Of a stretch of DNA of 64,000 nt, positions 5,994-60,231 are shown one piece after another. A model generated the notes under the pieces. The model made no database searches. It worked only from the letters and a program-made list of their open reading frames with translations, and was not told the DNA's origin. The position numbers were made by a program, and so were the translations under genes. This DNA comes from a virus (taxonomy: Duplodnaviria; Heunggongvirae; Uroviricota; Caudoviricetes). The stretch's first letter is position 1, and the number at the start of each line of letters is the position of its first letter. The stretch spans positions 12,413 through 76,412 of IMG/VR virus record IMGVR_UViG_3300017766_004476; one strand, 5' to 3'.

Positions 5994-6401
5994 TTAATAT
6001 TTCAATGGTGCTGAAACGACTTGTCCGTCTGGATACACAACGTCTACGTTTAATTGACCTGAATCTGCCATTTCTTGAAAATTTGGAATATTGCTCCAAG
6101 ACCATGGATCGGAACCGATTTCCTCTTCAACCACTCGTTGACGATCTCGTTTATTAGATATTGAATGTACAATCCGACTAAAGTTTGTAATCACATCACC
6201 AATAGCACCTCCAGAGTCGTACTCTTCAGGGCGTTCCGGGTCTGATTGCCGGGTATACATATGAACAATAATTTCTTCGATAGTTACAGATATAGGATTT
6301 TCTGGATTGTTATTTTGAGGATCTGGAACATTAGACATTGAAGGTCTATTTTTAAGAACCTCGTCGTATGCTTCAGAAAGCAATTCCATGTGGTGTTTCA
6401 T
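5994..6401 (-). CDS. small protein, MKHHMELLSEAY leader family
   Basis: Tandem paralog of 5716..5985. Confidence 0.55.
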   Translation of the reverse strand: MKHHMELLSEAYDEVLKNRPSMSNVPDPQNNNPENPISVTIEEIIVHMYTRQSDPERPEEYDSGGAIGDVITNFSRIVHSISNKRDRQRVVEEEIGSDPWSWSNIPNFQEMADSGQLNVDVVYPDGQVVSAPLKY

Positions 6402-7700: not shown

Positions 7701-8237
7701 TTAATGTCTGATGTCAGGGTTAGAAGGATTGAAGGAACCTTTGTTACCGGTTGCAGATTTGATCTGCTCTGGATAAAACGGAACATATGAATCACCTTTT
7801 CCTTCAACTTTATTAGAGTAAACCAAACCATCATACCCCTCTCGTTTAGCTCTCTGGATTATATATGCCCACATAGGGCCTAGTGTATCATCTTCAACTC
7901 GTTTAGGGTTTTTAATTGATAAATAGACAGGCACTATATTAGGCGCTTTACCTTTCATATTTTGAGTCATCCATTCATAATCTTCTGGAGATATAGTCCA
8001 ACCTCTTAAAATTTTATTAGCTTGTTCTGAAGAGCCAAAATGGCCTAATGCTCCACCTCCACCCATAAGCGTAGCTTCCTGATCTTTAAAAGTATTAAAA
8101 TCGTCAACTCGTCCATGATAAACAACTAAAGGATTACCTTGAGAATCAACCACCTTTGATCCCTTAAACCACTCTTTAAAGGCTGGTGATTCAGTCACTT
8201 TATAGTTCTCTGTAAAGTATTCCTTAAAGGTGTGCAT
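7701..8237 (-). CDS. CTS-like-leader protein, paralog pair B
   Basis: MHTFKEYFTENY leader, then KVVDSQGNPLVVYHGR and the same C-terminal tail. Confidence 0.6.
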   Translation of the reverse strand: MHTFKEYFTENYKVTESPAFKEWFKGSKVVDSQGNPLVVYHGRVDDFNTFKDQEATLMGGGGALGHFGSSEQANKILRGWTISPEDYEWMTQNMKGKAPNIVPVYLSIKNPKRVEDDTLGPMWAYIIQRAKREGYDGLVYSNKVEGKGDSYVPFYPEQIKSATGNKGSFNPSNPDIRH

Positions 8238-9049: not shown

Positions 9050-9187
9050 ATTATTATTATTTAATGATTATAAAGGCAGAACTAAAAAAGTGCAAAAAAA
9101 TTCACAAAAAATTTTTGAGAATCTTGAGAAATATAAACTGAAAGAAAGAGTGATGTTCGAGAGAATGATATTATTATAATATCATAA

Positions 9188-9688
9188 ATGAAACTATTTC
9201 AACAAGTTAAAGAGATTAGATCTCAGCAAGGAGAGTTACACTTCCAAAGGTATGCTATTATAGAGACGCATAAGTGGGCTCTCTATATTCATCGGATCTA
9301 TAAAGAAGATAAAGATGAACATTTACATAGTCATCCGTGGAACTTCATGAGTGTAATTCTGTGGGGTGCGTATATAGAACAATATGCTCCTGAGTATAAT
9401 CGGATGAGAGTAAAGTGTGAAGGATCATTCAGTAAGGCTGATCGGAACTACTTTCACAAGATCGTTGACATACTCAGGGGACCCGTAACTACGTTATTCT
9501 TTACGTGGGGAACACATCAACCATGGCATTACTGGGTTAAGGGTGAGAAAGTAGAATCAACAGAGTATCGGAAACAGAAGAATATTGCCCGGATGGCACA
9601 AGAGGTTGCACATAAGATAGATGCACAGATAGTTAAGAAGCTCCAGGAGCAGATTCCAGTACTAGAGAATCGTAAAATTTTACGATAA
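9188..9688 (+). CDS. hypothetical protein (166 aa)
   Basis: Plus-strand ORF immediately left of the island boundary. His-rich HLHSHPW segment. Confidence 0.45.
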   Translation: MKLFQQVKEIRSQQGELHFQRYAIIETHKWALYIHRIYKEDKDEHLHSHPWNFMSVILWGAYIEQYAPEYNRMRVKCEGSFSKADRNYFHKIVDILRGPVTTLFFTWGTHQPWHYWVKGEKVESTEYRKQKNIARMAQEVAHKIDAQIVKKLQEQIPVLENRKILR

Positions 9689-9921
9689 AAAAATTTCCGA
9701 GAACCGAGAACTTAAAAAGAATTTGGAAAAAAATTGGCATGGGGTCCGGATCGGAGTGCAAGCTTTTTCTATATCTAATAAATTTTCGTACTTAAGGCTT
9801 GCATTTCGCGGTGTGCTCCGATCCCCTCTCCACCTTTCGAGATGGCTGAGGCTCTCGAGAGCACACCGCTCTTAATTGTTCTAGTATCATTAAAGCTTGC
9901 CAGTTTGTTTAGATCAATGCT

Positions 9922-10179
9922 CTAGTAGCGCATAGTGACCACCTTCCTTTCTTTCACAGCATCCAATCCGGACAGCTGAGTGCACCCCTTCACTGAGGTG
10001 GCTGACCCATCCACAGCACCGCAATCAAATTGATTACCTTTACTCATCATCGGAGTAAAGTGCTCATCGCTCCAGCTCACACTCAGCTCAGCGCCCTGCA
10101 CTGCTGGGCTCCCTATCACAGGGCGCTGAGTCATGAGTATGTGTCCTGCGCTCGGTGTGATGAATATGTTCTTAATCAT
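9922..10179 (-). CDS. island gene 8, hypothetical (85 aa)
   Basis: GC-rich ORF. Promoter at 10193-10221 (TTGCAC-N17-TATAAG), 13-nt leader. Confidence 0.5.
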   Translation of the reverse strand: MIKNIFITPSAGHILMTQRPVIGSPAVQGAELSVSWSDEHFTPMMSKGNQFDCGAVDGSATSVKGCTQLSGLDAVKERKVVTMRY

Positions 10180-10192
10180 AACGTCTGCCTAT

Positions 10193-10221
10193 CTTATAGC
10201 TGCAGCCCGATTAGAGTGCAA
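10193..10221 (-). promoter_or_regulatory. island promoter TTGCAC-N17-TATAAG
   Basis: Exact hexamers and spacing. One of 8 copies. Confidence 0.5.
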
Positions 10222-10230
10222 CCGTTTTGT

Positions 10231-10626
10231 TTACTTTACTTCAACAGCCTCAACGAGCGGACCGTTCTGGTTGCCCACGCACCACATAATCCAAGCCCCA
10301 GCAATGGTGCGTGCGCGGAGCTCCCAACCGTTCGACATCGCAGCCAAGTAGCCGCAAATCCAATCTGGACGGAACGACTGGCGGATGCTCTCAGGCGTCA
10401 AGCCATATTCGTATGCAGAGAGCTCGATGCGCTCCAATCCGAACTCGTTGAAGTGATACGATGCCTCGCCTGCATAGATGTGTACATCGTTTCGCTTATC
10501 AATCTCGATGGTCACATCGCCGGGTGCCTCGATGACTTGCTTCATCGTTGCGCGACGCTCTGCGCAGGCTTCAGCAGTTAGCGCTTCAGGGTTGGTGATG
10601 GTCGTGAGCTTGAATTTATATTTCAT
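10231..10626 (-). CDS. island gene 7, hypothetical (131 aa)
   Basis: GC-rich ORF. The -10 CATACT lies 6 nt before the ATG, predicting a leaderless mRNA. Confidence 0.55.
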   Translation of the reverse strand: MKYKFKLTTITNPEALTAEACAERRATMKQVIEAPGDVTIEIDKRNDVHIYAGEASYHFNEFGLERIELSAYEYGLTPESIRQSFRPDWICGYLAAMSNGWELRARTIAGAWIMWCVGNQNGPLVEAVEVK

Positions 10627-10632
10627 AGATGC

Positions 10633-10661
10633 AGTATGGCTCTTTTTCGGAGGGAGTGCAA
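10633..10661 (-). promoter_or_regulatory. island promoter TTGCAC-N17-CATACT
   Basis: Exact hexamers and spacing. Confidence 0.5.
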
Positions 10662-10910
10662 CTACTTTGTGGGGCGCGGCAGGCTCGGAGGAATCGTCAG
10701 GAGGCTCCGACTCGTGATGTTCATGATGCCCACCACCGGCACCTGCTCTACCAAATTGGGAATGATTGCTTGCACTCCGCAGATGAAATGGAACTCAGCA
10801 TCGCGGCCTGCCTTGCCCTTCGGCCACCCCTTCTTGTCGAGGAGCTGGAGCTCGGTGAGGTGCTTAAGGAGCATTGCGTGTAGTTCGTCGAATGTGATGT
10901 TCTTTATCAT
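10662..10910 (-). CDS. island gene 6, hypothetical (82 aa)
   Basis: Same architecture. Promoter at 10917-10945. Confidence 0.5.
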   Translation of the reverse strand: MIKNITFDELHAMLLKHLTELQLLDKKGWPKGKAGRDAEFHFICGVQAIIPNLVEQVPVVGIMNITSRSLLTIPPSLPRPTK

Positions 10911-10916
10911 GTCAAT

Positions 10917-10945
10917 AGTATGGTTGATTTCTCGTTCTAGTGCAA
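10917..10945 (-). promoter_or_regulatory. island promoter TTGCAC-N17-CATACT
   Basis: Exact hexamers, 6 nt to the ATG. Confidence 0.5.
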
Positions 10946-11158
10946 CTACTCATTCCGAAATCGTGCCACAATGTTGTCCAAGTCAACACCCCGCATCACG
11001 TCCAATCCGCAATGGGTGCTCGGATGCAAGCGCTTATTGTCCAATGCGCACACATCCTTCATCCGCTGGTGCAGCTCCGGCTTGAGCACTTTGGCCCAGC
11101 TTGCGATGTGCTCTTCTTGGATTTTGATTCCTTCCGCAACTGTGAACTTAATTTTCAT
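10946..11158 (-). CDS. island gene 5, hypothetical (70 aa)
   Basis: Same architecture. Promoter at 11165-11193. Confidence 0.5.
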   Translation of the reverse strand: MKIKFTVAEGIKIQEEHIASWAKVLKPELHQRMKDVCALDNKRLHPSTHCGLDVMRGVDLDNIVARFRNE

Positions 11159-11164
11159 ACAGTC

Positions 11165-11193
11165 AGTATGGCTCTAAATTTGTTTCTGTGCAA
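11165..11193 (-). promoter_or_regulatory. island promoter TTGCAC-N17-CATACT
   Basis: Exact hexamers, 6 nt to the ATG. Confidence 0.5.
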
Positions 11194-11312
11194 CTACTTT
11201 TCCGAATTCTTTTCAGCGCCTACGCTCGAGAGAATGCACTCCCTCGCACACCGCAATAGCCCTAAGCGCTGAAAGGAACTCGGAGGGGCTGCCTCCGAGT
11301 AGTGTAAAGGCT

Positions 11313-11591
11313 TTAGGCCGCAGAGGCAACAGCTTTCTTCCGCACGGCGCGCTTCTTCGGAGCCGGAGCCTCGGGCTCAACCGCTTTGGGAGCCGGAGCC
11401 GCCACGAGCTTCGCCTGCTTGGGCTCGCGCTTGGCCCGCTCGTTGAGCCAGCGGAACGTGGGGGTGTGCAGAACGGCCGGATAGGTTCCGTTGCTCTGCG
11501 CCTGAGCGATGAGCTGGTTGACCGCATCGGTCGCGCTGAGCTCTTTGCGCTTGACGCGCTCCTTGTAGCTGTGATGCATTGTTGTCTTCAT
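11313..11591 (-). CDS. island gene 4: small basic protein with Ala/Pro/Lys-rich histone-H1-like tail (AAPAPKAVEPEAPAPKKRAVRKKAVASAA)
   Basis: Start at MKTTMHH. Promoter at 11635-11663 (TTGCAC-N17-TAATAT), 44-nt leader. Confidence 0.5.
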   Translation of the reverse strand: MKTTMHHSYKERVKRKELSATDAVNQLIAQAQSNGTYPAVLHTPTFRWLNERAKREPKQAKLVAAPAPKAVEPEAPAPKKRAVRKKAVASAA

Positions 11592-11634
11592 ATGTTTTTG
11601 TTTCCGACAGTAATCGTTATTGATTACAAAAAAG

Positions 11635-11663
11635 ATATTAGCTGTTTCCCGTGGGCAGTGCAA
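11635..11663 (-). promoter_or_regulatory. island promoter TTGCAC-N17-TAATAT
   Basis: Exact spacing. Confidence 0.45.
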
Positions 11664-11669
11664 CTCTTT

Positions 11670-11960
11670 TTAGAGTTTAATTACAACTACTTCCGCAATA
11701 TAGTGCTTGCCCGTCCCGTGCTGTTTGCCGAATATAGAGAACACCCAGCCGGAGATCTCGTCGTTCATATCCCGCATCCAGGAAACTTCTTCCGCCTGGA
11801 GCTGCTCGTCGTCGGGCAATGCATCGACGTACGCATTGATTGCAGCCATCTCGTGCGAGGGCTCGGGCCTCCGGTCCACCGCATCGTAGTGCTGGCCCCG
11901 GAGGCTGGGCGTATCGAAGTAGTTCTTAATCGTTATCCGGACCGCATATTTCATTTTCAT
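11670..11960 (-). CDS. island gene 3, hypothetical (~96 aa)
   Basis: Start placed at the second ATG so the -10 (CACACT, 11967-11972) lies 6 nt upstream, as in its siblings. Confidence 0.5.
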   Translation of the reverse strand: MKMKYAVRITIKNYFDTPSLRGQHYDAVDRRPEPSHEMAAINAYVDALPDDEQLQAEEVSWMRDMNDEISGWVFSIFGKQHGTGKHYIAEVVVIKL

Positions 11961-11966
11961 ACTCAT

Positions 11967-11995
11967 AGTGTGGCTCCGTTTCTAGTTCTGTGCAA
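11967..11995 (-). promoter_or_regulatory. island promoter TTGCAC-N17-CACACT
   Basis: Exact spacing. Confidence 0.45.
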
Positions 11996-11998
11996 CTA

Positions 11999-12370
11999 TT
12001 AATTGTAGAAATGTTTCCGAATTACAGAGTTGCCTTCGATGGTGAGAACGACTTCAATACAGCACTCGCTGTCTTCCGAATTCTGATACATGACCCAGCA
12101 GCCCGGAGTGTGCCACCCGCTGACCGTATTCTTATCCTTATCGCGCCAGAACACCACCCCCGACAGCTCTCCTTGTGGAATGTCGAGCTTTTCCGCCACC
12201 TCGATACACAAGTTGCCGATATCAGCTTCCATCCCCATCCCATCCTTGCCGAATCCGATAGGCTGAGCATAGACGGGACCACGGCCCAGCCATTGGCTGA
12301 AGCACATCCACAATTTGCTATCGTCGATGTAGTCAATCATCTTCCGGTCAATTGTCGTATCATTTATCAT
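11999..12370 (-). CDS. island gene 2, hypothetical (~123 aa)
   Basis: The -10 CATACT (12377-12382) sits inside the longest ORF, so the start is moved to the Met 6 nt downstream (MINDTT…). Confidence 0.5.
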   Translation of the reverse strand: MINDTTIDRKMIDYIDDSKLWMCFSQWLGRGPVYAQPIGFGKDGMGMEADIGNLCIEVAEKLDIPQGELSGVVFWRDKDKNTVSGWHTPGCWVMYQNSEDSECCIEVVLTIEGNSVIRKHFYN

Positions 12371-12376
12371 ACCCAG

Positions 12377-12405
12377 AGTATGGCTCATCCGCAGGAGCAG
12401 TGCAA
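12377..12405 (-). promoter_or_regulatory. island promoter TTGCAC-N17-CATACT
   Basis: Exact spacing. Confidence 0.5.
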
Positions 12406-12447
12406 CAATTTTCTAAAATATATTTCACGGCCCACCCGAATTTTTGC

Positions 12448-12476
12448 TTGCACATTCCCGAATTTTTCTTTATAAT
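12448..12476 (+). promoter_or_regulatory. plus-strand island promoter P1 (TTGCAC-N17-TATAAT)
   Basis: Consensus-like hexamers. Transcript would start GGGATTGGACCCCTCG. Confidence 0.5.
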
Positions 12477-12527
12477 GGGATTGGACCCCTCGTTACTTTA
12501 CTTTACAAAGAAAGCCCGAATAATGTA

Positions 12528-12556
12528 TTGCACTGCTAAAAAGAAACCGCTATAAT
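12528..12556 (+). promoter_or_regulatory. plus-strand island promoter P2 (TTGCAC-N17-TATAAT)
   Basis: Tandem copy of P1. Transcript would start GGGTCTGGACCTCTCG. Confidence 0.5.
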
Positions 12557-12562
12557 GGGTCT

Positions 12563-12668
12563 GGACCTCTCGTCGCTCGGCCTCCCGCACATAGGGAAAG
12601 GGAGATTATCGCTCCCTCTCGGTGTGAAAAGCCAGCTCCAAATCCTTTTCTTTTCTGCTGGCTTTTTA
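12563..12668 (+). ncRNA. candidate small non-coding RNA (~105 nt from P2, ~185 nt from P1) ending at an intrinsic terminator
   Basis: Promoter, then internal hairpin AGGGAGattatcgcTCCCT, then terminator AAAGCCAGC…GCTGGCTTT + TTTAT (12627-12668). No plausible ORF or SD. Confidence 0.4.
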
Positions 12669-12728
12669 TCAAGGAGAGTGCGACACTCTCGTCGAATGTC
12701 GCACTCTGTGAACTTTCAGACTTGCCTT

Positions 12729-13265
12729 TTAGCCGTTCGCTTCGACCGGCTGCTCAGCGATGTTTTCGACTTGGGGCTGGCCTTCCGGAGCCGGAGTGGG
12801 CTCGGGCGTCGCACCTTCCGGGGCCTGCGCAGCCTTTTTGCTGGCCTTCTTCGCGGCGGGCTTGGTCTTCTTGGCTTCCTTCGCAGCGCGCGCTTCCGCA
12901 GCCTTCGCAGCGCCATCGGACGGGGCGTTCGTCTTCATCTTCCCGTTCAGCTCGAACAGCTTGGCGATGAGCTTTTCCGGATTGGTGCTTGCCATCTTGT
13001 GCATCTCGAACTCCTGGGCCTTCTTGCCCGCGCGCTTGCGCACTTCCTCAATCGTCGCGCCCTTCCGCAGGTCGCTCAGCACGTTCTTGGGAACGTAGAA
13101 TTCGACGATTTCGTCGACCTCAACCTTGCGCCCGAGAATCTCGGAGCGACCCTTGGCCTTGTCGGCGAGGTAGTTGGCGTTGGTATTGCGGGAAGCACCG
13201 GTCAAGCAGCAGACGAGCTGCGGGCACTTCGATTTGGATTCGTTCTTTTTTGCTTTGCGAGCCAT
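12729..13265 (-). CDS. island gene 1: Lys-rich basic protein with AKKxAAK/PEP-rich C-terminal tail (histone-H1/AlgP-like tail)
   Basis: Start at MARKAKK. Promoter at 13335-13363 (TTGCAC-N17-TATCTT) with ~70-nt leader. The antisense 336-aa plus ORF is low-complexity and rejected. Confidence 0.55.
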   Translation of the reverse strand: MARKAKKNESKSKCPQLVCCLTGASRNTNANYLADKAKGRSEILGRKVEVDEIVEFYVPKNVLSDLRKGATIEEVRKRAGKKAQEFEMHKMASTNPEKLIAKLFELNGKMKTNAPSDGAAKAAEARAAKEAKKTKPAAKKASKKAAQAPEGATPEPTPAPEGQPQVENIAEQPVEANG

Positions 13266-13334
13266 ATGTTTGGTTCTTTCTATTTGTTGTTGTTTGTTTG
13301 CTTTACTACTATTCAGCACTTAGCTGATGTTGAT

Positions 13335-13363
13335 AAGATATGTTCTATTTTCGTTCTGTGCAA
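13335..13363 (-). promoter_or_regulatory. island promoter TTGCAC-N17-TATCTT
   Basis: Exact spacing. Confidence 0.4.
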
Positions 13364-13513
13364 CTTTATTTTGAACTTTTTTTCACTTTTGTTTAGCTTA
13401 GTGTTTCTTATCTACATCGTGCGCAAGCACTTTCTTATGCACCAATCTATATGCTTATTAATAACTAGCAAGAAAAATCTGAATAAAAAGTTCACGAAAT
13501 CCCGAATAAAAGC

Positions 13514-13541
13514 TTGCATCCCGGAGAAATATCGCTATAAT
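13514..13541 (+). promoter_or_regulatory. sigma70-like promoter TTGCAT-N16-TATAAT driving a 12-codon ORF and a structured RNA
   Basis: Followed by a perfect SD AAGGAG (13554-13559) and ATG at 13565 (MLRMRSAHDKRS*, 13565-13603). Confidence 0.45.
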
Positions 13542-13708
13542 ATGTTCTCTTTTAAGGAGTTCTAATGTTGAGAATGAGATCCGCTCATGATAAGAGATCT
13601 TAATCGGATCAGATTAGGGATGGGGCTCTGGGTTGCGGAGTGCAGATGTGGATAAGGTCTGAGGCCTCCCGGCTGCGGATCTGGCTCCGGTCCGGATGCA
13701 GCTCGGCA

Positions 13709-13785
13709 TTCAGGGAACGCGCTCTGCAGAGAAATCAGATTTACTTGAATGATTTTTGATTTCTCTGCAGAGCGCGTTCCCTGAA
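13709..13785. repeat. 29-bp perfect inverted repeat (arms 13709-13737 and 13757-13785) with a 19-nt loop
   Basis: TTCAGGGAACGCGCTCTGCAGAGAAATCA / TGATTTCTCTGCAGAGCGCGTTCCCTGAA, exact reverse complements. Confidence 0.9.
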
Positions 13786-14283
13786 AGAACACAGCGCGCC
13801 CGAATAAAAGCTTGATTATCCCTATAATGCGAGAACACTGTGCACTTTAATGATTCTCTGAGGCCTTTGTTCTAAGTCGTAAAGGTATGAATCACTGTGT
13901 TTGTATATGAAATGAAACAAACCTATTTAGAACAAAAGCTACATAGGGATCCGCAGGGGTTAAAAGATATGTCTGACTCGGTAGATATGTAATGAAGAGG
14001 AAGCGCTGAGGAGAGCCTGGCGGGGCAGAGAGTTCTGATACGTGTGTACGCGGTTCTGATAACGTGACGCGGGTATCAGATTGAGACGGGGCTAATAGAT
14101 AGGCCCCGCGAGGTTCTGAATATGAGGGTTCTTTAAACTATCTGAAGGATTACGGATTATAAGAGAGCTACCGGACCGAATAATGCGGATCGGTAGAGGC
14201 TTATAGGGCTCGGAAGGAGTCCGGAATATCTAGAGTTGAGAAAGTTGGAAAAAAATTATCCGGATCCGGGTACCTTTATACGC

Positions 14284-14359
14284 GACCAATTTTCCACTCT
14301 CTTCAGATCACCAATTCTCTTGAGTATTCTCATCCACTCTCTTCAGATCACCAATTCTC
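14284..14359. repeat. 27-bp direct repeat x2 (CCACTCTCTTCAGATCACCAATTCTCT)
   Basis: Two copies separated by ~22 nt, just outside the island's right boundary. Confidence 0.8.
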
Positions 14360-14391
14360 TCAAGCAGTCTCTGCCTCCTTATTTCTCTCCA

Positions 14392-14435
14392 TAAAAAATC
14401 CCATTACTAGATCTATCTCAATTTCTAGTAATGGG
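14392..14435 (-). terminator. rho-independent terminator downstream of 14456..14767
   Basis: CCCATTACTAGA…TCTAGTAATGGG hairpin followed by TTTTTT on the minus strand. Confidence 0.6.
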
Positions 14436-14455
14436 AAGAGTAAAAGACTCGATCT

Positions 14456-21913: not shown

Positions 21914-22027
21914 TGCCGGTGGAGGGATTCGAACTTAGCTTGTACTTCGCTACCGCTGCTCGTGCACGAGCCAGCGCCTCTCTACCTAGTTTATCAAACT
22001 AGCGCTCTGCCATTAAGCTACACCGGA
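21914..22027 (-). tRNA. tRNA-Ile(GAU)-like gene interrupted by a ~42-nt palindromic insertion inside the T-stem
   Basis: Acceptor, D-arm (GCTT/AATGGCA/GAGC), anticodon arm (CTAGT-TTGATAA-ACTAG) and T-loop TTCGAAT are canonical. An extra 21935-21976 segment (contains GCTCGTGCACGAGC) separates the T-stem 5' half from the loop. Confidence 0.5.
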
Positions 22028-25183: not shown

Positions 25184-26029
25184 TTGTTTTATAGTTTTAT
25201 AATAAATAATTGTATGAATAAAGATGAGGTACAAGAGCAAATTAATAGATTTAAGACCACAAATACTGGTAAATTTAAAAGCCTTCTATTTGATAACAAT
25301 TTGAAGCTAGTAATGTGTGAAGAGTGTAAAGTGACAGATACATATAATTCTAAACCAATAACTCTACAACTTCATCATATTGACGGAAATAATCAAAACA
25401 ATCATATTGACAATTTTCAGATATTATGCCCTAATTGTCATTCACAAACTAAAACATTTAGAGCCCCTAAAAGGGTAACAGACGATCAAATTTTAGCAGC
25501 TGCAAATAATTCTAAAACAATATCAGAAATTATTAAAAAGCTTGGAAAATATGCAAGTGGGGGTATTTATAAACGTATTGAAAAGGTTATTTTAGAGCAT
25601 AAATTGCCTATTACTAAGTATGATTATACGTCTAATAGAGCTATAGGATTTAAAAAGCCTCGAGGTAGAAAGCCTACAGGTTTGACACTAAAGACACATA
25701 TATGTAAGCATTGTAATTTAGAATTTAAACATACACACAAACGAACATATTGCTCATCAAAGTGCACCCATGATGCAGCATGTAAGTATAATATTGATGT
25801 TCAATCTGCAATTCCACTCATTAAAAAATTTGGATGGAGTCAAGCCGCAGTAAAATTAAATATCAATACAAAATGTCCTGATGTTACTCTCCGCTTAGCT
25901 GTTAAGCGCCATATAAAGTATATCGACCCAACACTTGACCTTCATGAATTATCTAAATTCAGTCATCATTCTAGATACATATATGACAAAGAAACTCGAC
26001 AGAGAATAGATAAATCTCTGTCGAGTTAA
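25184..26029 (+). mobile_element. free-standing HNH homing endonuclease (Mob-like), adjacent to a tRNA gene
   Basis: CEEC…HHIDGN…NxQILCPNCH HNH core. Sole plus-strand gene in a minus-strand block. Probable start at 25214. Confidence 0.75.
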
Positions 26030-30578: not shown

Positions 30579-30871
30579 AAATTAATAGGTGTTACTAGGC
30601 GCCCAACCCAAGATGCTTATGGCTTGCCTTTCGGGAATCTACTCAGCAATGCATCTAAAAACTTTCGGGAATCTACTCGTTGAACCTAATCATTATTTCA
30701 TAGCTGATTATCGCTAACGAATTAAAATATAAGATGTCTGTGAAAATATTAAAGCTTTTATTTAGAACATTTATCTCTGGCTTTTGTTCTAAGTGGTTCA
30801 TTTTATCAAATACATCTTTGTATATAAATTATAAACAAATTGATTAGAACAAAAGCTCTAATGAGCAAACA

Positions 30872-30929: not shown

Positions 30930-31226
30930 TTACTTCTGCTTACCGTTCAACTTGAGAGAACGTTCAGCCCGCTCTGCAAAGTCATCAGGAATAGGGCCCT
31001 TATTAAAGCGCACCCAAACCTCTGAATACGGAGTCTTTGCCTTCCGCGCCTTACGCAATGCTGAGCCTACATTCTTAGCAATGTAGTGTTGTTCGAACTC
31101 CTCAATCGTGACTCCTAAGAGTGCAGCACGAGCGGTGCAGTACTTAAGAGAGGTGAGACGTGTTTGTTGACTTACCCAGCACGTAAGTTTCCATTTCTTT
31201 TCTGCTGTTTGAGTTGTTTCATTCAT
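30930..31226 (-). CDS. hypothetical protein (98 aa)
   Basis: ORF. Confidence 0.45.
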   Translation of the reverse strand: MNETTQTAEKKWKLTCWVSQQTRLTSLKYCTARAALLGVTIEEFEQHYIAKNVGSALRKARKAKTPYSEVWVRFNKGPIPDDFAERAERSLKLNGKQK

Positions 31227-31340: not shown

Positions 31341-31372
31341 AAAAAGAGTCGGAGGCTTTGGACCTCCGACTC
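31341..31372 (-). terminator. rho-independent terminator downstream of the SPFH gene
   Basis: GAGTCGGAGG…CCTCCGACTC 10-bp stem followed by TTTTT on the minus strand. Confidence 0.65.
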
Positions 31373-43606: not shown

Positions 43607-43971
43607 TCTGCATCCTCTTCCCATGTGAGAATTGTACCTGTGACAAATTTATGCCGCATGCTAGAGCACCACTCTCGTGCAACCTCTTCTGTTTTAGCCT
43701 TGTCACTATAAACATCAGTCCCCTTTTTAGGGATGTAGAGAAAGACGTATGTACTCTTTTTTACCTGCGCTAAAAGAAGATCTTCATCGGATATTCTATC
43801 TTTCCACATTTGGCCGCCTTCAGAGTAGTGATGAGGATGTTTATCGACAATTGCAATTACCCTGTGACCAGCTTCACACTCTGGTAAATGAGCAATAAGC
43901 TTTGCTGGTCTACCATCTCTCGTCACCAACGGTGCACCCGCCATTGCCTTCTTTAGGTCAAACGGCTTCAC
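43603..43971 (-). CDS. hypothetical protein (122 aa)
   Basis: ORF. Confidence 0.5.
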   Translation of the reverse strand: MKPFDLKKAMAGAPLVTRDGRPAKLIAHLPECEAGHRVIAIVDKHPHHYSEGGQMWKDRISDEDLLLAQVKKSTYVFLYIPKKGTDVYSDKAKTEEVAREWCSSMRHKFVTGTILTWEEDAE

Positions 43972-51791: not shown

Positions 51792-51943
51792 TACGTTGTT
51801 AAATTAATAGTTAGAGAGTGATAAATCAAAGTAATATATAGCTTTTATCATATGTTCTAAATGGGAAGCTTTTGTTCTAAAAGGGGTTGATACAATTTAC
51901 ATATATCAACCCCTGTGAATTTTTAACTCATTTAGATCAAATG

Positions 51944-53365
51944 CTACAATTGTGCATTCTTTCTGACTTCATCGAAGGTAATCGGGTTAACCAATTTACC
52001 ATGATTAAAGACTTCAACCATTACATCAGGTCGCGGATCATCAACCGATACTGTTGCATAGGCGCTTCCATGAGCACCTTCAACCTTAACTAGCTTCAAG
52101 CGACCTGCTTTCGATTTCTTGCTCTGATCGAGAGGAAGCTTCTGAACATCTTCCCAGACTCCATTACGGAGCTGTGCACTGCACTTGAATGCAAACCGCT
52201 GAGTGTCGCGATTTACCTTCTGGAGTAGAGCGCCGCCCTTACCGAAGCATGCAATATTTTCTGTAGCATATCCATTGGCTGCTAGAAGAAAGAGAATTTT
52301 CTGAATTCCCTTATCATCAATACCATCACCCCAAAGTACTCTCACCTTATTGTTGATGACTTTATAGTTTTTACTATTGACATATCCTCCTGGAAGAAGC
52401 TTATAGAGCGTGTCAACAATCCACAGCATCTCTTCTTCTGGGGTCTTATGGGTAGGTGTTACACTGTCAGGACGAATTACAAACAATCCATCACGGTCGA
52501 GGATCTGCTGCTTGAATTGGTCACAGACGTATTTTTCTACGAAGTTGTAGATATTGTAGCTATCTGCAACCACACTTAGAATACCTGTCTTATAAGTATC
52601 AAGCAAGCGCTGGAGAACTTTTGCTTCTCCATTATTACCCTCTGCAGTCATAATGCGGTGCTCAGTTGCAGCAACCGAATATGCCAATGTCTCAAGGTTT
52701 GCATCATAATATGCTTCTGCAAGTTCCATACCTGCAATAGTATCAGTACCTTTGAAGTTAATCAAATGAGCAGCACCACCTAGAGCAGCACTCTCATACG
52801 AACTAACTCCCCGGTAACCAAAGTCATGTAACATGAAATCAAGGAGACCTTTATCGGAAGTCTTTTCAAGATAGACCTTAATCATCTTCTTAACTTCACG
52901 GCTTAGAGTTGCAACCGTACATGGATACCAAACCTGGCTGAGAATGGTTTCAAGATAATTCACCAACCATGCATGCTTCTCATCGGTTGCTTCAACAGTC
53001 ATGAGTACATTATTGACGGGTACTACTGTACCTTCGGGGACCGCCTTAATAATGATAGGCAGCTCACCGTTATGATTCTTGAGGATGTCCATCCAGCCTG
53101 CTTCATTAAAGAACTTCTCATCACCAAAGTGACATTTGACGAGATGCTTTGCTTGTTGAATTTCTTCAAAAGATACCCTGCGCCCACAGAGATGCTCTTC
53201 AAGAATTGCCTGAAGACCAAAGAACACAGTTGTATCCCATTTGGCACCGGGACGACTCTCGAAGTATGCATGAGTGTTGGTAGTTCCCGGAGGAAGCATA
53301 TTCCAATGTCCTCCCACTTTGTAGCTATCACTCTTATAGCAAATATTATTTCCAATTTTTTTCAT
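51944..53365 (-). CDS. nadV: nicotinamide phosphoribosyltransferase family (NAMPT/NadV; alternatively Namat-like)
   Basis: 473 aa. SDSYKV, YFESR and VLWGDGID signatures. Confidence 0.85.
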   Translation of the reverse strand: MKKIGNNICYKSDSYKVGGHWNMLPPGTTNTHAYFESRPGAKWDTTVFFGLQAILEEHLCGRRVSFEEIQQAKHLVKCHFGDEKFFNEAGWMDILKNHNGELPIIIKAVPEGTVVPVNNVLMTVEATDEKHAWLVNYLETILSQVWYPCTVATLSREVKKMIKVYLEKTSDKGLLDFMLHDFGYRGVSSYESAALGGAAHLINFKGTDTIAGMELAEAYYDANLETLAYSVAATEHRIMTAEGNNGEAKVLQRLLDTYKTGILSVVADSYNIYNFVEKYVCDQFKQQILDRDGLFVIRPDSVTPTHKTPEEEMLWIVDTLYKLLPGGYVNSKNYKVINNKVRVLWGDGIDDKGIQKILFLLAANGYATENIACFGKGGALLQKVNRDTQRFAFKCSAQLRNGVWEDVQKLPLDQSKKSKAGRLKLVKVEGAHGSAYATVSVDDPRPDVMVEVFNHGKLVNPITFDEVRKNAQL

Positions 53366-58829: not shown

Positions 58830-59138
58830 TTACTTAATTGATTCGACAAAGATGATGGTACCTTCAAAAACACCCATGTTCGACTTCTCTTTAAAGGTAA
58901 GAGTTTCTGCAACATCGTTAGTAGTTGCAGGTCGTGTCAGATACCACAAGTTATCCTGCTTATAGGTAACATTGAGAAGCTTGGTGTTTGGAGGGAGGTT
59001 AATGGTCATTGAACCCCCATAGTGCTTTGCACGTTGATTGTCGGTACAGCCTACAGAGCTCAAAAGAGCTGCAATAAGTGCACAGGTGGCAATTAAAGTG
59101 AGGGTATTACTGATATGTTTCTTCATAAATTTGTTCAA
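58830..59138 (-). CDS. secreted/lipoprotein (signal peptide, LSSVGC)
   Basis: N-terminal hydrophobic segment and a Cys. Confidence 0.5.
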   Translation of the reverse strand: MNKFMKKHISNTLTLIATCALIAALLSSVGCTDNQRAKHYGGSMTINLPPNTKLLNVTYKQDNLWYLTRPATTNDVAETLTFKEKSNMGVFEGTIIFVESIK

Positions 59139-60231
59139 TTAAATTTCTTAATTGTTTATCTTCGATAGTATCGTGTAAAAGCATTCGAAATGCAAGTGAT
59201 TGTCGAGATTTGATAATATTATTTCGTATCCACTCTGCTTGTTGAGCACGAGGTAACTCGAACACATTATGAATACCAAACAGTATCCGTAGTTGTGCTG
59301 CGATACTAAGAATATCTGCATGTACCTTATAAAGACGTTGGATAAAAGATTGCCAATACTCTAAGATTTCAAAATCATAAGTATTCTCAATATAAGACTG
59401 AAAGTGATCTTTAGGAGGCTTACCAAGATTAAACCACAAATCGAGCATCTTCTTCTCAGATGCAACTTCAGTCTTGAGGTGATGGATATTCCGATACCAA
59501 TCAGATTTGCACTTATGAAGAACTTGATCATTTTGTGAGTAAACTACTACACCCTCTTCACCTTTGAGTGCTTTGATAGCATCTTTGAGAGACTCAATAT
59601 TGTCGTAATGATAATATTTCGGACGCTTAAAGAGACCTTTAACTGCTAAATTGTTAAGGGTAATTTGCTCTGCTAATCGATAGTCTTGATGATATACATT
59701 ACCAATCAAATAAAAGTCAGGCTCATAGTAATGAATGACAATTTGGTTTATAGGTGATACCCACTCAAACAAAAGAGAGAAGTCCCAATTCTCTGATAGA
59801 GGTAGAATTTGAGAAATAGTAGGAATAAGCCGCTCTTTAAACTTTTCAAGCTCTTGCCAATTTTTATGTCCTCGCGAGGTAACCAATCCTGCGCGGGTGC
59901 GGAATATAAAGGTTTCCTTATATCGTGAGACAATTAAAAGTGACCCGTCTAATTTCTCAAGAACATTACATTGTGTAATATCTGTAGGCTCGGAAAATAA
60001 TTCAGACTTCTCATCCCAATTAAAGAATTTAGGAAATCCGGCACTTACGAGCTCTCCTTTTGCATTCCACATAGAGGATCTAAAGATGAGATTATCTTTA
60101 GTCCAGACAACGGGAGCATTCTTGATAGGTTCAACCAGGAAAAGAGTTTCTCTTTCACCAGATGAAAGGAGGAATTCAATATTTTTGATACTGAATTCCT
60201 TCCGATTTAATACTGACAAGTCTCTAATCAT
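59107..60231 (-). CDS. rnlA: RNA ligase 1 (T4 RnlA/gp63 homolog)
   Basis: 374 aa, the same length as T4 RnlA. Motif I LEKLDGSL, EGVVVY and HKCKSDWY align with T4 KEDGSL, EGYVAV and KIKSDWY. Confidence 0.8.
   Translation of the reverse strand: MIRDLSVLNRKEFSIKNIEFLLSSGERETLFLVEPIKNAPVVWTKDNLIFRSSMWNAKGELVSAGFPKFFNWDEKSELFSEPTDITQCNVLEKLDGSLLIVSRYKETFIFRTRAGLVTSRGHKNWQELEKFKERLIPTISQILPLSENWDFSLLFEWVSPINQIVIHYYEPDFYLIGNVYHQDYRLAEQITLNNLAVKGLFKRPKYYHYDNIESLKDAIKALKGEEGVVVYSQNDQVLHKCKSDWYRNIHHLKTEVASEKKMLDLWFNLGKPPKDHFQSYIENTYDFEILEYWQSFIQRLYKVHADILSIAAQLRILFGIHNVFELPRAQQAEWIRNNIIKSRQSLAFRMLLHDTIEDKQLRNLIEQIYEETYQ

Follow-up and report, generated by a model that had tools for sequence, protein, structure and literature searches.

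A candidate orphan small RNA unit with tandem promoters in a shuffled island of an uncultured freshwater phage

Does a short promoter-to-terminator interval, lying inside an island of ORFan genes and facing the opposite way from them, specify an RNA that acts without being translated? The interval is part of a 64,000-nt stretch of DNA (the window; positions 12,413–76,412 of IMG/VR record IMGVR_UViG_3300017766_004476) from an uncultured, large freshwater phage. The window has a G+C content of ~38%, holds almost all of its genes on the minus strand and includes genes for NAMPT (51944–53365) and a T4-type RNA ligase (59107–60231); the closest phage relatives are ~45% identical at best. In the island, at ~10000–13300, the G+C content is 52–54%, and the island proteins find no match in Pfam or PHROG. 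The region has been met, identical or at 99.5% identity, in one Logan contig and the JGI metagenome contigs Ga0181352 and Ga0181363 and nowhere else (source contigs JGI 3300017747, JGI 3300017707 and SRR10520205), and exact protein look-ups for further contigs led to the same phage population only. A sequence-only reading of the window had proposed that two tandem promoters in the island drive a candidate sRNA, possibly antisense to its neighbors. The layout of the locus supports a non-coding unit, with promoters of the phage's own family, no start AUG and a hairpin followed by a T-run, and the generic features of an sRNA gene can be found in the sequence: a promoter of its own (predicted), a terminator, a length between 50 and 300 nt (predicted isoforms of ~185 nt from position 12483 and ~105 nt from 12563) and no ORF above 10 codons. 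We infer from sequence the transcription of the unit, its start sites, its 3′ end and any regulatory role. That the candidate is an orphan phage sRNA is plausible, its mechanism being inferred only, and we tentatively favor an independent non-coding transcription unit that would act by base pairing.

The two promoters, here P1 and P2 (Table 1), are exact matches to TTGCAC-N17-TATAAT at the positions originally given for them, and they do face the opposite way from the island genes, lying on the plus strand with 80 nt from one to the other. Exact copies of this element, with 0 mismatches, number three in the 64 kb against 0.01 expected, a count reached in none of 100 shuffles; the third copy lies at 9067–9095 on the minus strand. 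All minus-strand island genes are preceded by (A/G)GTAGTTGCAC-N17-(C/T)A(T/C)A(C/A)T. A family motif consisting of a TTGCA(C/T) −35, a spacer of 16–17 nt and a TATAAT-like −10 has 12 matches in the window, 8 of which fall within 9095–13514, and P1 and P2 match it exactly. Judged by sequence, P1 and P2 are thus members of the phage's own sigma-70-like promoter family, with perfect hexamers that are better than those of any gene-driving cassette in the island. P1 stands back to back with the minus-strand promoter of an ORFan gene, the two −35 hexamers being 42 bp apart.

Table 1 Features of the candidate RNA locus and of related sites in the window (window coordinates)
Feature	Position	Strand	Details
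CCCGAAT box	12435–12441	+	Upstream of P1 −35, about −48 to −42
Promoter P1	12448–12476	+	−35 TTGCAC 12448–12453, 17-nt spacer, −10 TATAAT 12471–12476, discriminator GGGATT
Second CCCGAAT copy	12457–12463		Inside P1 spacer
Predicted 5′ end, long isoform	12483–12493	+	GGACCCCUCGU; 10/11 identical to 12563–12573
CCCGAAT box	12515–12521	+	Upstream of P2 −35
Sole complete ORF above a few codons	12523–12555	+	MYCTAKKKPL, 10 codons; in P1 transcript only, overlaps both P2 hexamers
Promoter P2	12528–12556	+	−35 TTGCAC 12528–12533, 17-nt spacer, −10 TATAAT 12551–12556, discriminator GGGTCT
Predicted 5′ end, short isoform	12563–12587	+	GGACCUCUCGU, then C/U-rich tail; candidate seed
Internal stem-loop SL1	12588–12626	+	CACAU.GGG..GGGAG / CUCCCUCUC.GUGUG; −15.7 kcal/mol
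Bidirectional terminator hairpin (predicted)	12627–12667		10-bp stem, 20-nt loop 12637–12656
14-bp inverted repeat, 3′ UTR of 178-aa gene	12675–12707	−	−24.9 kcal/mol on minus strand; no U-tract
Convergent gene	12729–13265	−	178 aa; hydrophilic, K/A/E-rich
Divergent promoter of 123/129-aa ORFan gene 11999–12370/12388	12377–12405	−	TTGCAC-N17-CATACT-N6-ATG
Promoter P3	13514–13541	+	CCCGAATAAAAGCTTG box
P4-like site	13799–13828	+	CCCGAATAAAAGCTTG box and TATAAT, no usable −35
Comparison hairpin and T-run sites	near 31345, 56508, 62910	−	
Comparison hairpin and T-run site	near 51920	+	
Leaderless-layout examples (genes starting at)	23805, 19856, 15707, 22309, 35285, 21432, 39673, 11158, 10910, 10626	−	
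TTAGAACAAA(A)GC motif	13927–13946, 30776–30790, 30843–30858		Also upstream of genes starting at 6401, 5608, 37417, 21776 and 62880

How these two promoters differ from their relatives becomes clear from the way in which the phage starts its genes. A search of the whole window for TTGNNN-N16-18 followed by a −10 element yielded 25 promoter-like placements, with TATAAT, TATTAT or CATACT as −10 motifs, and in 17 of them the gap between the −10 and the ATG is 6–7 nt. With such a gap transcription would start at or beside the A of the AUG, giving leaderless mRNAs. The phage appears to use leaderless mRNAs devoid of a Shine–Dalgarno (SD) sequence as a rule, a layout that is unusual for a large phage and offers a clue to its host. 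P1 and P2 depart from it: GGACC... stands where the ATG is expected, and then no gene follows. In a phage of this layout, the missing AUG at the predicted start marks both promoters as non-coding. The lack of an SD sequence had also been held against translation, but it is uninformative about coding, because an SD-like sequence is present in only 13 of the 117 window genes.

Sequence conservation between the two copies is uneven. The predicted starts, G12483 and G12563, follow the model of the phage's own -10-N6-ATG genes, which puts them 7 nt downstream of the −10. Over the 23 nt from each −10, 20 are identical, which upholds the early observation of near-identical transcript starts and narrows it to a box, GGACC(C/U)CUCGU, with identity at 10 of its 11 positions (+1 to +11). 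Identity is 6/6 in the −35, 3/17 in the spacer, 6/6 in the −10, 4/6 in the discriminator and 6/17 in the 17 nt that follow the box; the chance of at least 14 matches in the 17 nt after the −10 is 1.7e-6. As hexamers and start box have been kept while the spacers are unrelated, the pattern argues for selection on both promoters and, in addition, on either the RNA 5′ end or the DNA at −6 to +11. The start block has no other occurrence in the window and is missing from the gene-driving cassettes. The shorter motif CCYCTCG has 10 copies in the window, three of which lie in the candidate RNA, inside a span of 135 nt.

Could P1 and P2 nevertheless be by-products of the way in which the island evolves? 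Each island ORFan (region 9900–13370) has its own cassette, (A/G)GTAGTTGCAC-N17-CATACT-N6-ATG. A variant contig, L033, is 99.7% identical to the window up to position 10655, inside the promoter at 10633–10661, then carries two extra promoter-plus-ORFan units (L033 positions 950–1620) and resumes at window position 10667 with 88.7% identity. These switch points, 10655–10667, place the breakpoints within a promoter cassette. On this sequence comparison, the island is hyperplastic, with a modular shuffling that resembles that of PeSL elements but is seen here outside the T4 group. PeSL promoter/stem-loop cassettes undergo modular shuffling in T4-type phages (PMC2839356, PMC4122927). Repeated strong sigma-70-like early promoters, an AT-rich upstream region, ORFans in a hyperplastic region and strain breakpoints inside the cassette are common to both, the breakpoints holding for the island as a whole. 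P1 and P2 differ from PeSLs in being reversed, in driving no ORF and in sharing the promoter half only: directly upstream of either there is no stem-loop, just the CCCGAAT boxes. The terminator stem-loop upstream of the promoter in PeSLs is often of the poly-G/poly-C type; such a stem-loop does not recur regularly among the cassettes of this phage, which is itself not demonstrably T4-like.

The main alternative follows from this comparison, namely that P1 and P2 are gene-less, inverted promoter cassettes produced by shuffling, from which an RNA may be made and stopped at the terminator of the neighboring gene, but would have no function of its own. The presence of the same cassette at every island gene speaks for it, as do the L033 breakpoints within a cassette, in the manner of PeSL shuffling. 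So does the P2 spacer, which is homologous to the minus-strand promoter at 11635–11663; P2 and that promoter have TTGCACTGC...GAAAC.GCTA in common, which identifies P2 as an inverted relative of a gene-driving cassette. The candidate RNA, moreover, has neither a homologue nor a significant target (see below). Neutral relics, however, are not expected to combine perfect hexamers with a start block conserved at 10 of 11 positions between unrelated spacers, and the T-run of the terminator is better on the plus strand, that of the candidate RNA, than on the minus strand. We therefore regard this alternative as unlikely, if worth keeping in mind, and continue to favor a non-coding unit that would act through base pairing.

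The conserved block may also be read as DNA. A CCCGAAT box occupies a fixed place, about −48 to −41, upstream of P1, P2 and a third plus-strand promoter, P3, and 5 of the 7 copies of this box in the window lie on the plus strand at 12435–13805, each adjoining a plus-strand promoter. Under a DNA-level role, the GGGNNTGGACCNCTCG block and the CCCGAAT boxes would bind a protein that controls P1, P2 and the back-to-back promoter, or else strong convergent transcription would keep read-through from the 178-aa gene, which faces the unit, out of the island genes downstream. The block spans −6 to +11, a typical position for an operator, P2 contains the short dyad GGTC-TG-GACC, the boxes keep their place at three plus-strand promoters, and the divergent −35 hexamers are close together; the weak minus-strand tail of the terminator, UUUUCAC, makes read-through plausible. 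P1, however, reads GGAT-TG-GACC, hence there is no consistent palindrome, the block is found nowhere else in the window, and no DNA-binding protein is recognizable among the island ORFans. Nor does an operator need a dedicated terminator 105 nt downstream. A function of the DNA itself is, in our view, distinctly improbable.

According to the favored reading, that of a base-pairing RNA, P1 and P2 would start RNAs at ~12483 and ~12563 that begin with the same 11 nt and both end at the shared hairpin and U-run. The short isoform is predicted to fold into a ~25-nt 5′ tail, the stem-loop SL1 and the terminator (z = −1.97), and such an order of elements, from an unpaired 5′ tail through an internal hairpin to a terminator, is the one usual for sRNAs. 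Its C/U-rich tail is little paired, being unpaired in the centroid structure and engaged in two weak 3-bp helices in the MFE structure. SL1 appears in MFE and centroid structures alike, and its core is the AGGGAG...CUCCCU hairpin that had been pointed out at the outset. The fold of the long isoform is not unusually stable (z = −0.45), and folding is exceptional in neither isoform.

The hairpin at the end of the unit had been described as a textbook intrinsic terminator. It does combine a stable stem (arms 12627–12636 and 12657–12666) with a direct U-tract (TTTTT at 12663–12667 on the plus strand), but its 20-nt loop is not that of a textbook case, being outside the usual 3–8 nt and atypical for an efficient intrinsic terminator; a standard terminator scan, which allows loops of 3–8 nt, missed the hairpin for this reason. 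Other sites in the window with a single hairpin and a T-run have loops of ~5–11 nt (Table 1). The hairpin is predicted at −13.6 kcal/mol on the plus strand and −15.1 kcal/mol on the minus strand, and it is followed by UUUUU and UUUUCAC, respectively.

On its far side, the hairpin faces a convergent gene for a protein of 178 aa. The protein belongs to a small conserved phage family (16 representatives at E<1e-3 in a full HMMER search) with the motif PKLxCxxTGxxRxTNxxYLxxKA...LNGK, and is a paralogue (E = 8e-7) of a 98-aa protein encoded outside the island at 30930–31226 on the minus strand. With paralogue and family in sequence support, this is a real gene; neither it nor the 123-aa protein on the other side has close relatives. 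An antisense action on the island genes, as had been suggested, does not follow from the layout, as the predicted 3′ end of the candidate RNA is still 61 nt short of the 178-aa stop codon and the RNA overlaps no coding sequence. What it may share with the 178-aa mRNA is ~40 nt of the 3′ end only, where both would use one terminator. Since no U-tract follows the inverted repeat in its 3′ UTR, the 178-aa mRNA probably runs on to the shared hairpin. If it ends there, the last ~40 nt of both transcripts would be complementary. The 20-nt terminator loop of the candidate RNA would then be the exact complement of the loop in the 178-aa mRNA terminator, and the 3′ ends could enter a loop–loop contact.

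Small RNAs that overlap the 3′ end of their target are known from the type I toxin-antitoxin pairs txpA/RatA and bsrG/SR4, and phage antisense RNAs include lambda OOP and P22 sar. In common with the former, the locus would have a small RNA convergent to a protein gene, a shared, bidirectional terminator (predicted) and large complementary loops that could start loop–loop contact. A type I toxin-antitoxin system can be discarded, because the partner is a hydrophilic, K/A/E-rich protein of 178 aa and not a small hydrophobic toxin. The overlap, moreover, is confined to the ~40-nt terminator, and homologues of the gene occur without a partner RNA. The OOP/sar pattern fails for want of an overlap with a coding sequence. 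Homologues of the 178-aa protein are encoded at 9 IMG/VR loci, where we found no convergent promoter or RNA unit downstream of the gene, hence the RNA is not a conserved partner of this family.

At seven of these nine loci (L025–L028 and L030–L032 of the set L024–L032), a terminator lies behind the gene, and its 15-nt loop, GCUCUUCUU, is complementary to AAGAAGAGC just after the stop codon. This suggests, from sequence complementarity, a conserved pseudoknotted 3′ UTR in the homologues of the 178-aa gene.

A terminator so close to strong promoters recalls one more phage arrangement. In lambda, the strong constitutive promoter PR′ is followed shortly by the terminator tR′, giving the short non-coding 6S RNA, and the unit described here would likewise combine strong promoters, a nearby terminator and a short non-coding RNA, all of them predicted. 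The lambda pattern nevertheless fails, as no same-strand genes lie downstream to be switched on. A short constitutive leader of an antitermination-controlled unit, in which a phage factor would cause late read-through of the hairpin, would account for strong promoters with a terminator within 105 nt and no gene in between, yet we rate it as very improbable: read-through would be antisense to the 178-aa gene, the next plus-strand ORF of at least 150 aa is at 25184, >12 kb downstream, and no antiterminator homologue was found.

Coding capacity within the interval is minimal. Closed ORFs inside 12483–12668 are MYCTAKKKPL, LHC and V only, so that nothing above 10 codons closes inside the candidate RNA and the original judgment that it has no credible ORF holds. 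One argument for it has to be amended: the −10 of P2 does not overlap the only ATG, since a further ATG at 12523 opens the 10-codon ORF. We rejected the latter as a gene; it is restricted to the long isoform. The ATG at 12555 lies inside both the P1 transcript and the P2 −10; its frame reads through the terminator, meets no stop until 13565 and runs for 336 codons antisense to the 178-aa gene. Neither public contig has a gene call in the interval. With no AUG at the 5′ end and no longer ORF, the candidate RNA is probably not translatable. A small protein from the interval, whether from the 10-codon ORF or from the frame of ATG 12555, is hardly credible given these positions, although the A-rich sequence before both ATGs resembles the SD-less gene starts of the phage and although the copies differ at three sites of which two are synonymous in the MGLD... 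frame.

Database searches place the unit in this phage only. A comparison with Rfam, proposed at the time as a check, gave no family at the gathering threshold anywhere in the window; when 12300–12800 was scanned with E values up to 10 allowed, the best hits were unrelated miRNA models with E of at least 2.5. No tRNA or tmRNA was found in the candidate interval. Phage records contain no similar DNA, in near or distant mode. A promoter-plus-box pattern had 0 matches in IMG/VR, and a looser pattern had 21 chance matches there, none with a TTGCAC or CTCG context; the CCCGAAT box combined with the promoter pattern hit one unrelated IMG/VR contig of 63% GC. The pattern scan of GTDB genomes gave 0 matches, and that of JGI metagenomes yielded contig L023 only, which represents the same phage at 99.45% identity overall. 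L023 differs by 15 substitutions and 3 indels over 3.3 kb, none of them in 12191–13144; with ~1.8 changes expected in the 330-nt interval, their absence is not significant. An 18-nt SL1 probe, the one probe used to look for an RNA anti-CRISPR that would mimic a CRISPR repeat, had 8 scattered single matches in unrelated genomes and none in CRISPR arrays.

Complementarity to messages of the window, another of the checks proposed earlier, was analyzed with BLAST and RNAduplex; duplexes do exist, but they are only marginally better than shuffled controls. The best duplex in the window joins the 5′ tail to the beginning of the gene at 43944 (−32.1 kcal/mol in RNAduplex) in two blocks, one covering AUGGCGGG. 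For shuffled seeds, the best of 117 averaged −25.9 ± 2.2, and the lowest value among 25 shuffles was −31.0; the best duplexes lie ~2–3 sd beyond shuffled seeds. The terminator loop has a 14-nt match to codons 6–10 of the gene that starts at 31226 (E = 0.036), but it is a low-complexity pyrimidine sequence and the null distribution overlaps. Both predicted targets are marginal and not convincing. If the unit acts by pairing, its seed for phage or host targets elsewhere would be formed by the conserved 5′ end together with the CCYCUCG repeats.

Among known phage RNAs, the candidate comes closest to the orphan sRNAs of virulent phages, a class discussed for lytic phages and predicted from promoter–terminator pairs or RNA-seq (PMC8244752). 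It resembles them as a short intergenic unit that has promoter(s) of its own, lacks an ORF and closes with a predicted intrinsic terminator, all in a large phage of lytic type. It differs in being known from sequence alone and in two traits peculiar to this locus, the perfect promoters in tandem and the 11-nt 5′ end common to both isoforms. In phiKZ, the best-mapped jumbo phage, dRNA-seq found no leaderless transcripts, and the one sRNA predicted there was not confirmed, a result that illustrates how thin the knowledge of jumbo-phage sRNAs is.

Several further features of the window deserve mention. Between 13400 and 14455, ~1.05 kb contain no ORF >52 aa. P3 and the P4-like site precede strongly structured non-coding sequence here, with fold z-scores of −7.2 for 13548–13800 and −4.06 for 13835–14260. 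The region includes a perfect 29-bp inverted repeat (13709–13737/13757–13785), for which Rfam returned sub-threshold miRNA-hairpin models only and nothing at gathering score, GTTCTGA(T/A)A repeated 3–4 times around 14030–14130, and two perfect 28-nt direct repeats (14293–14320 and 14333–14360). This stretch could give rise to a large structured RNA, or it could have an origin-like or regulatory role. An origin or priming role for P1 and P2 themselves was dropped, as the iteron-like repeats are ~1.4 kb away, with a terminator and a gene in between. A recurrent motif, TTAGAACAAA(A)GC, occurs in intergenic regions across the window, often beside a hairpin, and may represent a second promoter class or a terminator–promoter cassette. 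Two adjacent paralogous genes both start with MKNKDTQLLAEAY; one of them is missing from L023 (14764–15006; L023:1262–1302), and the loss appears to stem from recombination between the repeated 5′ ends of the two paralogues. The gene just left of the island region (7701–8237, minus strand) has a precomputed hit to the ART-PolyVal ADP-ribosyltransferase domain (PF18760). A second Rfam tRNA match (21914–22027, minus strand; 114 nt, 36.2 bits) was not called by ARAGORN and may be an intron-containing or degenerate tRNA.

Functions have been assigned to few of the sRNAs of virulent or jumbo phages. The farthest-reaching version of our proposal is one that we consider rather a long shot. In it, the unit would give an abundant early RNA whose shared seed, GGACCYCUCGU, and C/U-rich motifs would find their partners among host RNAs or at the 5′ ends of mRNAs that lack a leader. 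The RNA would be a host-takeover or anti-defence factor, the founder of a new phage RNA family and part of a plus-strand non-coding cluster (12435–14455) that shares the CCCGAAT box. At present, the value of the locus is that of a well-defined single-locus candidate for metatranscriptome mapping, rather than that of a finding in itself, and the leaderless layout, the cassette shuffling with mapped breakpoints and the 1-kb structured region may interest phage biologists more. Should the RNA prove to be highly expressed early, it would offer an entry point to RNA-based control in leaderless, SD-less phages.
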